37,642 nucleotides of DNA, from UHGV virus genome UHGV-0029174; one strand, given 5' to 3'. A program made the translations under genes and the position numbers. The DNA comes from a virus. This document shows positions 28,969 to 32,760 of this stretch, piece by piece. The notes beneath the pieces are model-generated. The model was not told where the DNA came from and ran no database searches. It worked only from the letters and a program-made list of their open reading frames with translations. Each line of letters opens with the position of its first letter. The first letter of the stretch is position 1.

Positions 28969-29370
28969 TCACCCCCACATATTAGTTTCGTATTCACCAA
29001 TATCCGGTAGCAGGTCGCCGCGTTCGCGAACCTTAATAAACAATCGCCCGCCTTTTACCTTCCGGCAGCGAACAAACTTCATTACGTCAACCTGGCTGTC
29101 ATCGGCCCAAAAACCGGAATAAGTTATAGCGTCAAACAATGCTTTCCCCACATTATCAATATCACGGCGGCGGGCGTCTGGCGGGGCAATATACACGGTT
29201 ATTGATAATCTGCATTGAAGACTTATATCAAGATTGAGTAGCTCTATAATATCCTTCACCTGCTCCCTGTATTCTTTACCTTCCTTGCTTATGTAGTTGA
29301 CTCCCCTGGCATGGCGGTAATATTTATTCGCCGTTGGCGGATACGGAAGTGTCATAGTGTATTCGTTCAT
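28969..29370 (-). CDS. rusA: Holliday junction resolvase RusA
   Basis: MNEYTMTLPYPPTANKYYRHARG and APPDARRRDIDNVGKALFDA resemble E. coli RusA (TLPWPPSNNRYYRH; DRRRRDLDN); ATG 29370 with SD GGTGA. Confidence 0.85.
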   Translation of the reverse strand: MNEYTMTLPYPPTANKYYRHARGVNYISKEGKEYREQVKDIIELLNLDISLQCRLSITVYIAPPDARRRDIDNVGKALFDAITYSGFWADDSQVDVMKFVRCRKVKGGRLFIKVRERGDLLPDIGEYETNMWG

Positions 29371-29851
29371 TTCTGTCACCATGTCCAGAGTGAAAATTAT
29401 ATTTTATCTCTGCTTCCTCTCTTGCTTTAACAGCATCGCTAAAGCTATCAAAATACCCTAAATTATAAAGCACCCCTTTAACTCTTATATATGAATGCCA
29501 TTTACTTAACGGCTTATACCAACGAACACCGACCCTACCACTCTTATTTCTTGAGCTTAAACTAGCATTTTTCATGTTTTCTTCATGAGTTACTAACCTT
29601 AAATTTTCTATTCTGTTGTTATATGGTATATGGTCCAAATGATCTATCTCGTAACCTTTAGGAATCGGGCCGTTAAACATTTCCCAAATAATACAATGGC
29701 AAAGATGATGTTTATACTTGTACATCACCCTTACATAACCTATCCCAAATCTATTTCCGGCGATGTCACCTTTATTGACGTTCCCGCTAGGTTTTATTTT
29801 CCAGTATAAGATTCCGTCGTTGTATTCAAATATATCATGCCAATTAATCAT
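29324..29851 (-). CDS. HNH homing endonuclease (HNH_3-like/AP2-like) between ninG and rusA
   Basis: IWEMFNGPIPKGYEIDHLDH...NNRIENLRLVTHEEN; overlaps rusA 5' end by 47 nt. Confidence 0.8.
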   Translation of the reverse strand: MINWHDIFEYNDGILYWKIKPSGNVNKGDIAGNRFGIGYVRVMYKYKHHLCHCIIWEMFNGPIPKGYEIDHLDHIPYNNRIENLRLVTHEENMKNASLSSRNKSGRVGVRWYKPLSKWHSYIRVKGVLYNLGYFDSFSDAVKAREEAEIKYNFHSGHGDRNERIHYDTSVSANGE

Positions 29852-30453
29852 GCTACCTTTCTCCTTAAGGCGTCTAATTTCGCCTGATAAACTTTAATGA
29901 TCTCCTTACATTCTTCGATCGTCCATTTGTGAGTCTCGTTATTATTTTCTAATGCCTCCACCCTTTCTAATCCTATTTTTTTTATTAAATTTATTCTGTA
30001 TAACTCAACATTGCCGTCTAATACCTGATTGCAATGTCGGCATTGTAGGTTTACGTTATCCTCGTTAAAGCGAAGGTGTCCGGCTGCCGCTACTGTGCGC
30101 CAGTGTCCAGCATCAGCGCCGCATTGTTCGTAATAATAAGTCCCGCAAGATATACACGGCTGTCCTGCGTCACGTTCGCGGATATAGGCATTAAATACCG
30201 CTTGTGCCTGCTTTAACCAGTAGCTGCGCGGATTTAACTGTTTCCGTTTTCGGTTGCGTTCTTCCCGCTGGCTATCACGGCGCTTCTTCCGTTCCATAGC
30301 CTTCATAGCCTTCTCACGGTCGCGACATAGCTGATCAAACTTCAGTTCTTCCAGACATTCATCGCTGCACCACGTTTGATTGTGATATTTAGGTTCAAAA
30401 AAAACGCCGCAGCATTTGCAACGGCGTCTTATGGGTTTTTTAGGGTTCTGCAT
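29848..30453 (-). CDS. ninG: NinG-like protein
   Basis: PRSYWLKQAQAVFNAYIRERD, QPCISCGT, GHWRT, LRFNE, WTIEECK closely resemble lambda NinG; ATG 30453 with SD GGGGTGG. Confidence 0.85.
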   Translation of the reverse strand: MQNPKKPIRRRCKCCGVFFEPKYHNQTWCSDECLEELKFDQLCRDREKAMKAMERKKRRDSQREERNRKRKQLNPRSYWLKQAQAVFNAYIRERDAGQPCISCGTYYYEQCGADAGHWRTVAAAGHLRFNEDNVNLQCRHCNQVLDGNVELYRINLIKKIGLERVEALENNNETHKWTIEECKEIIKVYQAKLDALRRKVA

Positions 30454-30467
30454 AAAAACCACCCCGA

Positions 30468-30644
30468 TTATTTTTGATTCTCTGTTTCGTTCAGCCTTTC
30501 GGCGTGTCCGGCCCTTAGCCAATGTTCTAAGCATTCGTTGCACTCGTTACAGCCTCCTTCCTTCGTGCTGCATACATTGCACATTGCACGCATGACGCTT
30601 TCTCGTTCATAGTCGTCATGCCATTGGTAATTATCAAAAGTCAT
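30468..30644 (-). CDS. NinF-like small Cys-rich protein (58 aa)
   Basis: ATG 30644 with SD AGGAGA; YERESVMRAMCNVC...C.EC pattern like lambda NinF; below track size cut-off. Confidence 0.5.
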   Translation of the reverse strand: MTFDNYQWHDDYERESVMRAMCNVCSTKEGGCNECNECLEHWLRAGHAERLNETENQK

Positions 30645-30724
30645 AATGCTCTCTCCTTTTCAGGTGATTTCTACGCATTTCAGCGCTGCCGGATTTTTAA
30701 AGAGCATTTCTTTTGCTTGAAGTA

Positions 30725-30799
30725 TACAAAATGGATACGTGCAAACAAGACGAAAAGCGCCATTATGTGACATCAATCACACAATGACGCCATTTTGTA
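30725..30799. promoter_or_regulatory. inverted repeat TACAAAATGG ... CCATTTTGTA (10-bp arms, 55-bp spacer) with -10-like TATACT on minus strand
   Basis: Same ACAAAATGG / CCATTTTGT motif as at 7199, 10546 and 26752; upstream of ninF-like gene. Confidence 0.35.
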
Positions 30800-30899
30800 A
30801 ATTTCAGTCCGGTAAAGCGCGGTTGAGCGTAGTACGATTGATGGCCCGGTCGTTAGCCAGGAATACAGCACGGGCGAAGCCGCGCGGCGGTGGCTTGTT

Positions 30900-31427
30900 C
30901 TATTTGCCGTGGTTTTCGTGATATCCATACTCTTTTTCAGCGTCGCGCCGCGCTTTTATTGCGTCATTAATATCAGAAAAACAACCTATATAAATCCTAT
31001 TGCCTCTTTTGCCTCCTCCTATTCTAACAACCCATTTCCCATGTTTGTTTTTATGTACGCCAGTACATCCACTGGTATTGTTTACCATCAAAGACATGTT
31101 GCGCATATTATCTTTATGGTCCTTTAATCCAAGATTTACTGCTCTGTTATCTGTTTTAATGTGATTTATATGATCAACCTCCTTTCCTTCAGGTATTGGG
31201 CCATAGTACATCTCATAACATATTCTGTGAACTTTTAAATTATAACGCTTTCCACCAACGGTAAGCGCTGTATTAAGATACCCACCGCTACCGCCAATAT
31301 GTCCAACTTCATGACCAGCATTACACGCATTCCATTGTTTACGCCTTGATTCTTCTATGTCATTTCTATATTTCCAGTACAACTTACCTGTATCTGGATT
31401 GTATATAAAATAATCATCCCAATTCAT
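30900..31427 (-). CDS. HNH homing endonuclease (HNH_3-like/AP2-like)
   Basis: EVDHINH...DNRAVNLGLKDHKDN and C-terminal AP2-like segment; third paralog. Confidence 0.8.
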   Translation of the reverse strand: MNWDDYFIYNPDTGKLYWKYRNDIEESRRKQWNACNAGHEVGHIGGSGGYLNTALTVGGKRYNLKVHRICYEMYYGPIPEGKEVDHINHIKTDNRAVNLGLKDHKDNMRNMSLMVNNTSGCTGVHKNKHGKWVVRIGGGKRGNRIYIGCFSDINDAIKARRDAEKEYGYHENHGK

Positions 31428-31927
31428 TTCCTACCCTCAAACGTGAAATAGCGGCGCATGATGATAGTGATCACCGTTACCGCTGCCATTTTTGAGATAA
31501 ACTGCATTGCTGATATTTCCGGCATAAACGCCATAAACGATAGCGTCGGGAAAATTAACGCATCCCCGATGGCTGAAGCTATATTTGCAGGCCAGCGCTT
31601 CGAATCGAAATCACCAGGCAAAACCCGGTAAACACCGCCAGATATAAGCGCACCTGAAACAACCGCGACGAATGACGCTATTGCCACCATTCCTGCATCG
31701 TAATTTATTAGCACCGTGATTGCGCCAGCGACGGCGCATGTTGTAGCCGACCATTTCAGGCCGCCGTCATATAACAGAAAGTCGCGGATCATCATATTGA
31801 CACACACTGCGGCTACCGTAGTGACCGGAATCACCCACGGGCCGCAATGGTTAACAATAAGGTTGATGATCACGAAAACGGCGACGTAAACGCAGGCCAA
31901 TAACCTGTCAATTGTCACCCTCTTCAT
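31424..31927 (-). CDS. multi-pass integral membrane protein (167 aa)
   Basis: At least four hydrophobic segments; start overlaps upstream stop; directly downstream of Dam-like gene. Confidence 0.5.
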   Translation of the reverse strand: MKRVTIDRLLACVYVAVFVIINLIVNHCGPWVIPVTTVAAVCVNMMIRDFLLYDGGLKWSATTCAVAGAITVLINYDAGMVAIASFVAVVSGALISGGVYRVLPGDFDSKRWPANIASAIGDALIFPTLSFMAFMPEISAMQFISKMAAVTVITIIMRRYFTFEGRK

Positions 31928-32228
31928 TTAGTTCTCCCTCCCGATCCGCTAATATCTGTTCGGCCTTAAGCGCGTTATAAGCAATAAGGTCTATGAGAGT
32001 GTCGAGCGGATCAGTTCCATTAGCGAGAATAGCCCCTAAACGCGCTTCCTTGAGGCAAATCATTAGATCCCATACATCAAGTGGGGTTAAACTTGTCCCC
32101 TTCTTAGCGTTGTAAATAGTGGCTATTTTTGGCGCTGATTTTTCTTCTTTTCGATCGTATCCGTTTTGCTCCCCTCTTGCCTCAATAGTTTCAGCCGCAA
32201 GTCTTAGCAATTCAGCCGCTTTACTCAT
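31908..32228 (-). CDS. hypothetical protein (~106 aa)
   Basis: Track ORF 31908..32246 trimmed to an internal ATG after the methylase stop. Confidence 0.45.
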   Translation of the reverse strand: MSKAAELLRLAAETIEARGEQNGYDRKEEKSAPKIATIYNAKKGTSLTPLDVWDLMICLKEARLGAILANGTDPLDTLIDLIAYNALKAEQILADREGELNEEGDN

Positions 32229-32760
32229 TATCTGCACCTCTTGCATATAGCTCTTTACGCGTTATGTGTGTGAAAATACATTCATGTCTGCACCGTGGAT
32301 GCCAGATCAAAAACAGGCTTCCTTTGTTGTTCCCGCTCACTGGCTTACCAGTTGCAGCATTGATAAACGCCAGCCGCCCGCGCGTGATTAATCGGCATTC
32401 GTTTGCCGTCTCCACGCCATTCATAAACCAGCTAACAGAAATGTCAGCGGGCAATAACATTACGCAACCGATATGGTTTCGGCTGTGTTCAATCGCCGCC
32501 TTATCAACGAATGGCCCTGGGTTCGAATATGGTGGATTCATCCAAACATACTCACCAGGCATTGCCACCGCTCCCCACGGATAAGTAAGCGTGTCCATTT
32601 CTTCGGTTATATACCGAGGAACGAGCGCGTTTTCCTTGTTTGCTGCCACATCTGCGACAAATTCGAACTCGCGATCCATTCCTCTAAAAACTGGTTTAGG
32701 TGTCTGCCACAGGTCTTTAATTTCCTTCGGCGTGCTGCTGCCTCCAAAATCATTTTTCAT
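32221..32760 (-). CDS. phage Dam-like DNA N6-adenine methyltransferase
   Basis: DLWQTP near N-terminus and NPPYS catalytic motif; ATG 32760 with SD GGTGG. Confidence 0.8.
   Translation of the reverse strand: MKNDFGGSSTPKEIKDLWQTPKPVFRGMDREFEFVADVAANKENALVPRYITEEMDTLTYPWGAVAMPGEYVWMNPPYSNPGPFVDKAAIEHSRNHIGCVMLLPADISVSWFMNGVETANECRLITRGRLAFINAATGKPVSGNNKGSLFLIWHPRCRHECIFTHITRKELYARGADNE

Follow-up and report, generated by a model that had tools for sequence, protein, structure and literature searches.

Nuclease genes of phages sit at the boundaries of genetic exchange (PMC10448857), and the union of an HNH nuclease domain with an AP2 domain is a recognised homing endonuclease architecture and family (Magnani et al. 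2004, as cited in PMC10448857). Within the PDB, the enzyme which comes closest to the proteins discussed here is I-HmuI of the Bacillus phage SPO1, encoded inside a group I intron. The present analysis concerns a stretch of 37,642 nucleotides, the virus genome UHGV-0029174 (hereafter the window, whose first letter is position 1), and three genes on its minus strand, which we call HNH1 (20892..21395), HNH2 (29324..29851) and HNH3 (30900..31427). We hold it to be highly probable that each of them is a free-standing homing endonuclease gene (HEG) of the HNH_3 + AP2 type, residing in a temperate coliphage of the mEp021/mEpimmI group. This reading is carried by their family, catalytic residues and predicted fold, by the polymorphism of their insertions and their independent assortment, by the excess conservation of HNH2 and HNH3 compared to the backbone and by purifying selection; their cleavage activity, target sites and homing process are inferred.

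Three HNH_3 proteins in a temperate coliphage

The four open reading frames (ORFs) which the first-pass annotation had named as HNH genes are all present on the minus strand, and three of them, encoding 167 (HNH1), 175 (HNH2) and 175 (HNH3) amino acids, match the Pfam family HNH_3 (PF13392) far above its gathering cut-off of 24.8 bits (78.2, 75.2 and 59.3 bits; E = 3.5e-22, 3e-21 and 2.9e-16, respectively). All three also match PHROG 99 'HNH endonuclease' (E = 1e-52 to 1e-64), and none of the nucleases of the window is matched by NCBIfam. Their pairwise identity in a MAFFT alignment is 38-46% (46% and 41% to HNH1) and they find each other by tblastn with E = 1e-23 to 1e-42; they are true paralogs, though old and distant ones, and tblastn against the window returned exactly these three, with no fourth HNH_3 copy or remnant. 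The core motif proposed for the three genes, IWEM-NGPIP-GY-IDH-DH...N-R--NL, is exact in two copies, and the third follows it only approximately (ICYEM-YGPIP-GK-VDH-NH). Residues D71, H72, N80, N84 and N93 (HNH1 numbering) are unchanged in all three paralogs, and in an alignment of 54 homologs the D, the H and the last N are invariant, the residues of the D-H...N...N motif being invariant or nearly so. The sole sequence match in the PDB, I-HmuI (1U3E, E = 0.005, residues 35-99), aligns along the same DH...N...N motif. The doubt raised at the outset, namely that the proteins might lack the HNH catalytic residues, is thereby removed.

An AlphaFold2 (AF2) model of HNH2, based on the 54-sequence alignment, reached a mean predicted local distance difference test score (pLDDT) of 88.5, with residues 165-175 below 50. 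Its top PDB match by Foldseek is again I-HmuI (1u3e_M, prob 1.00, 95 columns, root-mean-square deviation 3.0, E-value only 0.019); the model displays the predicted beta-beta-alpha-metal fold and the match covers its N-terminal two-thirds. At the C-terminus, the strands 109-112, 117-124 and 127-134 together with the helix 137-150 make up an AP2-type sheet plus helix, and the PDB matches 2-8 are the AP2 domains of AtERF1, TEM1 and WRI1 (WRINKLED1) (prob 0.92-1.00; template modelling score 0.67 on the AtERF1 target), with Foldseek E-values for matches of the model of only 0.02-0.2. The Pfam AP2 profile (PF00847) stays sub-threshold in HNH1 (20 bits, cut-off 33.3; E = 8e-4) and yields no match for HNH2 or HNH3, and a precomputed PF00847 match exists for some homologs. 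AP2 membership is therefore a matter of predicted fold and not of sequence profile, and with this provision the label 'HNH_3/AP2-like' given to the genes is a fair one. A scan of the window with Rfam revealed no RNA family, group I and group II introns included, and no tRNA; HNH1-3 are therefore free-standing. Intron- or intein-encoded endonucleases were considered as well and are ruled out, since no Rfam intron is present and the flanking genes are intact and of full length.

The genome which harbours these genes is that of a temperate coliphage from the gut, belonging to the mEp021 (mEpimmI) group, its DNA being 87-92% identical to the phages mEp021, mEp010, mEp013, mEp044, mEp515, mEp554 and MagusPhagus. 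Members of the mEpimmI group are temperate, non-lambdoid and Nus-dependent (PMC11893012). Related prophages are found in 35 of 5426 complete Escherichia coli genomes, and stretches 100% identical to the window occur in human-gut metagenome contigs (6528 nt in L029, 6504 nt in L031). HNH1, HNH2 and HNH3 are all missing from the seven sequenced phage relatives listed above, six of which are mEp isolates recorded on E. coli K-12, while at least six of the 35 prophages contain HNH genes in the nin region; across metagenome contigs and prophages, the presence of the HNH genes varies. Conservation at identical positions in all relatives, which would have told against the first-pass annotation, is thus not what the comparison yields. 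The genomics paper on the mEpimmI group (PMC11893012) mentions neither HNH genes nor HEGs nor terminases, no paper found in the literature pairs 'mEp021' with 'HNH', and HEGs are undescribed for mEpimmI coliphages.

HNH2 and HNH3 assort independently of each other. An identical HNH2 protein is encoded in at least 24 contigs, among them L025 (55 kb, Hadza gut sample), which carries HNH2 and a dcm gene and is devoid of HNH3. An HNH3 protein identical to that of the window is present in three further contigs (L027, L028 and L030), all without HNH2, whereas L029 carries both and other gut-metagenome contigs carry neither. The nucleotide identities to the window differ accordingly along these genomes: L030 reaches 100% in HNH3, as opposed to 97.8% in the membrane-protein gene upstream of it, 94% in the spacer, 83% in ninG and 74% in rusA; the corresponding values are 98.9, 92.5, 81, 82 and 70% for L027 and 98.3, 94.0, 97, 82 and 69% for L028. 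L025 shows no difference over the 930 nt of HNH2 plus rusA, compared with 95% identity in ninG, 96% in Q and 95% in the membrane-protein gene. Better conservation of HNH2 and HNH3 than of the backbones, combined with independent assortment, is the expected footprint of recent horizontal spread. The ratio of non-synonymous to synonymous substitution rates (dN/dS) of 0.05-0.11 across HNH1-3 indicates purifying selection.

Moreover, the flanks are altered together with each gene: a block comprising the terS 3' and terL 5' ends goes with HNH1, codons 6-16 of rusA with HNH2 and a 'type 2' dcm allele with HNH3. The insertion points coincide with breaks in nucleotide homology, and the junctions are therefore mosaic. 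The proposal that selfish nuclease genes mark mosaic junctions in this genome is hence borne out by catalytic residues, presence/absence and homology breaks alike. The accompanying statement on a 'heavy load' of nucleases needs tempering: three HNH_3 copies are above average but not exceptional, as other phages have 3-6 matching places in a single record. Of the 50,697 records of the phage collection, 1968-3198 contain a homolog of one of HNH1-3; these have approximately 1.3-1.5 matching places each, and some as many as 6.

The terS|terL and ninG|rusA insertions

HNH1 lies, as had been annotated, between terS (21408-21908; Sf6_terminase, PF20901) and terL (19421-20908; Terminase_6C), both on the minus strand and both confirmed by Pfam and PHROG profile matches. 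Downstream of the terS stop, it is provided with a ribosome-binding site of its own (RBS; GAGGTGA), and its last 17 nt are shared with the beginning of terL; in all seven phage relatives, terS and terL are separated by a gap of 2 nt with no gene in between. Orthologs of 96, 92, 81 and 74% amino acid identity were retrieved by protein search, always in the order terS (166 aa), HNH (167 aa), terL (495 aa) and always in mEpimmI-like contigs. Compared to the HNH-less relatives, nucleotide homology breaks off at 21507 and picks up at 20836. The first 400 nt of terS are 84-89% identical to the HNH-less genomes and the last 100 nt only about 50% (21408..21506, minus strand, corresponding to the last ~33 codons); in terL, whose diverged 5' part spans 20309..20908 on the same strand, the identity amounts to about 55% in the first 72 nt, to 70-76% in nt 73-600 (~530 nt) and to 91-94% in the remainder. 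Against HNH1-bearing loci, the same terS 3' end is 76-91% identical, and terL shows 81-96% in its first 72 nt and 90-92% from nt 73 on. This gradient places HNH1 at the centre of a diverged block, with linkage fading with distance. The first 200 amino acids of TerL are only 75% identical to the mEp021-type TerL, and a donor of the diverged terL 5' block was not found in the phage collection, where the mEp021 group itself is the best match (75% aa) and Cronobacter and Klebsiella phages reach only 65-67%.

The position between the terminase genes raises the question whether HNH1 is a packaging accessory nuclease similar to HK97 gp74, which the terminase of this sub-lineage needs. All members of the sub-lineage have indeed kept an intact HNH1 at this position, with alleles down to 74% amino acid identity and a dN/dS of 0.06-0.09 (measurable only for the orthologs of 81-96% identity, since synonymous sites are saturated at 74%), and the terS C-terminus and the terL N-terminus, plausibly regions of mutual contact, are peculiar to the sub-lineage. 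Nevertheless, we regard this role as quite unlikely: no HNH gene stands between terS and terL in any of the seven phages or of the 35 E. coli prophages, whose terS and terL are ~85-90% identical to those of the window; the terminase is of the Sf6 type (PF20901, with a Terminase_6C large subunit) and not of the HK97 type; and HNH1 combines HNH_3 with AP2 like the I-HmuI-type enzymes and its own two paralogs, rather than belonging to the gp74-type PF01844. Sf6-type terminases are headful packagers, for which cos cleavage is not needed. The 'packaging-associated' alternative left open in the first-pass annotation consequently finds no support for the terS-terL copy.

HNH2 occupies the junction between ninG (29848..30543, minus strand, Pfam NinG E = 1.6e-64) and rusA (28969..29370, minus strand, with the longest ORF extending to 29382; Pfam RusA E = 5.5e-17), both of which are intact, rusA with its start as in the relatives. 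HNH-less genomes read ...AAGGAGAAAGGCAGC-ATGA-ACGAATAT... at this place, the ninG stop overlapping the rusA start. In the window, the HNH2 coding sequence follows the ninG ATGA, and 477 nt further on rusA starts anew at another ATGA. HNH2 was thus inserted exactly at the ninG/rusA ATGA, so that the former RBS and start codon of rusA are now used by HNH2. No stop codon closes the HNH2 frame before rusA is reached, and its final 47 nt run on into the rusA 5' end; the tail which they encode (residues 165-175) is the one part of the HNH2 model with low confidence. The 47-nt overlap reported earlier is correct with the ATG at 29370 used by the relatives, and becomes 59 nt with the longest ORF. Codons 6-16 of rusA read TMTLPYPPTANK in the window, where every allele without HNH2 follows the pattern F-S-LPYPPS-N-R, and it is this recoding which creates the HNH2 stop codon. 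The recoding is common to the window, L025 and the N921 prophage, whichever rusA allele type lies downstream. As it is present in all HNH2-bearing alleles, the mobile unit includes the first ~47 nt of rusA, and according to the rusA alignment the segment 29324..29370 (minus strand) belongs to the HNH2 cassette. We infer a putative cleavage site of the empty allele in the rusA 5' end.

Beyond this segment, rusA exists in two allele types (~74% identical at the amino acid level), whose distribution within the phage group is independent of the HNH state. A co-conversion tract comprising the whole diverged rusA allele was considered and is ruled out, because both allele types are found with and without HNH2; the window-type rusA occurs in the prophages RM9245 and N1286, both devoid of HNH2, and only the first ~16 codons are HNH2-specific. 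Other HNH_3 genes are found at the very same junction: the STEC308 prophage carries a gene of 158 aa, 52% identical to HNH2, with a duplicated RBS region, and the E21845 prophage one of 162 aa, 48% identical to HNH2. Three HNH_3 lineages with three different junction sequences imply that ninG|rusA was invaded independently at least three times.

It had also been stated that two HNH genes flank ninG. HNH2 does adjoin it, but HNH3 lies 356 nt upstream, with a dcm remnant and a ninF-like ORF in between. This ORF (30468-30644), situated between the dcm remnant and ninG, encodes 58 Cys-rich amino acids, and is preceded by a non-coding spacer (30644-30800), whose equivalent in mEp021 has an annotated predicted terminator.

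Several points weigh against homing as the explanation. To our knowledge, neither a cleavage site nor an activity is on record for any of HNH1-3 or their close homologs. Strong purifying selection is expected of an active HEG, but fits a gene needed by the phage as well, and general mosaic recombination could in principle give rise to presence/absence polymorphism without any homing. HNH1, furthermore, is not more conserved than its backbone, as a horizontally spreading gene should be: the proportion of synonymous differences (pS) among its alleles is 0.7-0.8, compared with ~0.35 for the flanking terL. Its fixed site and its association with a specific variant of terS C-terminus and terL N-terminus fit a long-resident rather than a recently mobile gene, and HNH1 seems to have been settled in one sub-lineage for a long time.

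Alternatively, the HNH genes could have been domesticated, the AP2 domain serving as a regulator or the nuclease as a weapon against other phages or host DNA, and the polymorphism reflecting module shuffling. The dN/dS values of HNH1-3 are as low as those of the neighbouring essential genes, the HNH genes are co-oriented and translationally coupled in operons, and co-option of a HEG DNA-binding domain is documented in other phage systems (PMC10448857). We nonetheless consider domestication very improbable, given that the catalytic residues are intact, that conservation above that of the backbones and independent assortment speak for horizontal spread instead of vertical retention, and that three HNH_3 lineages have reached the same ninG|rusA junction; cutting of competitor genomes ('marker exclusion') is normal HEG biology and does not constitute an alternative.

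We therefore retain homing as the preferred explanation. Each protein would consist of an I-HmuI-like beta-beta-alpha-metal nuclease and a C-terminal AP2-type DNA-binding domain. During co-infection, or in an infected lysogen, the endonuclease-free allele of a related phage would be nicked or cut near the insertion point of the endonuclease gene, and recombinational repair off the endonuclease-bearing genome would copy the gene plus a flanking stretch into the cut genome. Such a mechanism would explain why HNH1-3 lie exactly between two genes, taking over the translation signals of the one that follows, why relatives that are otherwise collinear may have or lack them, and why the flanks are diverged, namely the terS 3' and terL 5' ends, the first 16 rusA codons and the dcm allele.

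HNH3, dcm and further nuclease genes

The start of HNH3 and the stop of the membrane-protein gene upstream of it overlap as ATGA, at the dcm start site of HNH-less relatives: there, a 'type 1' dcm (cytosine-5 methyltransferase) starts in an ATGA overlap with the membrane-protein gene. The RM9245 prophage carries an HNH3 ortholog (83% aa) at the junction of membrane gene and dcm, followed by a 'type 2' dcm, which is only 48-53% identical to type 1 but 84-86% identical to the Dcm of the Drexlerviridae Poky and PeterMerian; all dcm alleles reconverge at the C-terminal motif LTPRGFARAVF. Orthologs of HNH3 are 83-95% identical in prophages and 74-76% identical in Drexlerviridae, where they stand beside dcm, and the HNH-dcm pair of Poky and PeterMerian retains 75% nucleotide identity over 1222 nt with the RM9245 version. 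HNH3 thus belongs to an HNH-dcm cassette which virulent Drexlerviridae have as well. Compared to the RM9245 arrangement, ~627 nt of dcm are deleted in the window. What is left is a 3' remnant of 84 nt (30804..30887, minus strand), the last 27 codons, encoding PRGFARAVFLANDRAINRTTLNRALPD followed by the stop, as well as the dcm start (MDITKTTAN, from 30928), retained within the HNH3 3' end.

In the Warwickvirus phages Poky and PeterMerian (loci L020 and L021), the HNH3-like gene overlaps dcm; the Tunavirus Shigella phage S2_02 (L022) has an HNH3-like gene with no adjacent annotated dcm. This suggests that the polymorphism of HNH with or without dcm extends to virulent phages.

Tentatively, and leaning somewhat towards doubt, we put forward a more specific scenario: HNH3 could be a homing endonuclease targeting the phage dcm, which moved an HNH-dcm cassette between Drexlerviridae and mEpimmI phages, overwrote the resident dcm up to LTPRGFARAVF and persisted after dcm was lost, while ninG|rusA would be a recurrent landing site of at least three HNH_3 lineages. 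If true, this would represent HEG-driven exchange and turnover of an epigenetic or anti-restriction gene across the boundaries of lifestyle and family. That HNH3 and dcm instead form a restriction-modification-like pair, the nuclease being restrained by cytosine methylation, is hardly credible, for although both genes are adjacent and overlapping in RM9245 and Drexlerviridae and travel together, HNH3 is intact and conserved despite the dcm deletion in the window, STEC308, L027, L028 and L030, its domain architecture is that of a homing enzyme, and S2_02 has the HNH gene without an annotated dcm.

The fourth gene annotated as HNH, described as different from the other three, deserves separate attention. 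The ORF and its motif are indeed present (36196..36396, minus strand, 66 aa; PHROG 2340 'endonuclease', E = 1.5e-19), but they represent only the C-terminal, zinc-finger/HNH-like fragment of a frameshifted gene of ~180 aa. The motif CxxC...HH...CxxCH...H, here CEVCG...HAHHCDY...CPICHRAWH, is part of a gene split over two frames: the frame of the 66-aa ORF is open upstream to ~36531, its first start codon being the GTG at 36396, and tblastn of mEp554_24 (187 aa, annotated 'endonuclease VII') aligns residues 2-45 to 36603-36734 and residues 63-182 to 36205-36531 in different frames. The Cys-rich N-terminal part (CKQCIKCG...) found with mEp554_24 lies at 36494..36734 (minus strand), and its frame stops after an apparent additional A in an A-run near 36530 (gene span 36494-36838 / 36196-36531). 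The gene should accordingly be either a frameshifted pseudogene or the result of an assembly error. The 66-aa ORF gave no match above threshold in Pfam or NCBIfam, and the extended frame 36196-36531 (111 aa) reached only 14 bits with Pfam HNH PF01844 (E = 0.059; cut-off 21.4). A PDB sequence search with the full-length mEp554 homolog produced no match, and an exact look-up of the 66-aa product in the protein collection found nothing on record. Neither mEp021 nor mEp515 shows DNA similarity across the fourth gene, mEp021 having no gene annotated there, and the fourth gene is therefore a variable cassette, too.

A fifth nuclease gene may be present elsewhere. A precise insertion of 735 bp (24534-25268) is located directly upstream of the holin gene and contains an ORF (24533-25231, minus strand); in five related contigs (L013-L019) without it, 25269 is joined directly to 24533. 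The product of 232 aa weakly resembles KilA-N at its N-terminus and contains a PD-(D/E)xK nuclease domain similar to DUF559/Vsr (Pfam DUF559, 24 bits, cut-off 20.6), and homologs, restricted to the C-terminal ~70 aa, occur in only 27 phage records. Possibly, this ORF is a mobile nuclease gene of a different family.

Further HNH_3 sites are seen in other mEpimmI genomes, namely mEp013, mEp515 and N921. In the N921 prophage, the C-terminal segment of a DUF6378 gene is replaced by an HNH_3 gene of 178 aa, 44-49% identical to HNH1 and HNH2. The DUF6378 gene of the window (31908-32246) lacks ~175 nt, i.e. the C-terminal ~55 codons, compared with mEp554 and RM9245, exactly the segment replaced in N921, the junction being at ~31927-31954. 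The DUF6378 site is a further hot spot of HEGs, at which the window possibly retains the scar of a deletion.

Comparison with known systems

As an example of selfish nuclease genes at the borders of mosaic segments, the window is clear but ordinary; class and behaviour of such HEGs are well known, and the find therefore leaves our understanding of them unchanged. Its value lies rather in annotation: three genes of the recently defined, gut-prevalent mEpimmI coliphages, hitherto hypothetical or simply 'HNH', can now be annotated as mobile HEGs, the copy between terS and terL should better not be read as a packaging component, and exact mosaic breakpoints become available for mEpimmI comparative genomics. 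In addition, identical endonuclease sequences in diverged backbones provide a natural set of alleles with and without HEGs, which, together with plaque-forming HNH-less K-12 isolates (mEp021, mEp554 and others), allows homing by HNH-AP2 enzymes, the length of the co-converted tracts and the specificity for targets to be tested directly in a temperate phage.

Among the described systems, the free-standing Seg and Mob HEGs of phage T4 resemble the genes of the window in their intergenic insertion, their presence or absence among relatives and the co-conversion of flanking markers. The Seg enzymes are GIY-YIG nucleases, and the Mob enzymes are HNH nucleases without AP2. The HK97 gp74-type HNH gene shares with HNH1 the location beside terminase genes, but belongs to another HNH family, lacks AP2 and is conserved with the cos-type, HK97-like terminases, whereas HNH1 is dispensable in relatives and accompanies an Sf6-like terminase. 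The HNH-AP2 HEGs of phages, cyanobacteria and protists, as well as the 'IPA-HNH' HEGs of the Vibrio phage ICP1 (Barth et al. 2023, PMC10448857), share the architecture described here. The ICP1 genes are also similar in their location at exchange boundaries and in occurring in several copies per genome; however, their products are too divergent for Pfam HNH_3, whereas those of the window are canonical HNH_3 proteins in a temperate mEpimmI coliphage (PMC10448857 for ICP1). Closer still to HNH3 is the HNH-dcm pair of the Drexlerviridae (Warwickvirus Poky gp49/gp48, PeterMerian bas05_0051/0050), with an HNH protein 74-75% identical to HNH3 and, compared to RM9245, the same overlapping HNH-dcm arrangement and a Dcm 84-86% identical, yet these phages are of an unrelated family, with unrelated genes beside the pair, and the dcm of the window is cut down to its 84-nt 3' remnant. 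I-HmuI, finally, is the best PDB match to the window proteins by sequence and by structure, with D-H...N...N aligned, but at ~24% identity and with other C-terminal DNA-binding modules; it is encoded within its intron, while the genes of the window stand free and end in an AP2-like domain.

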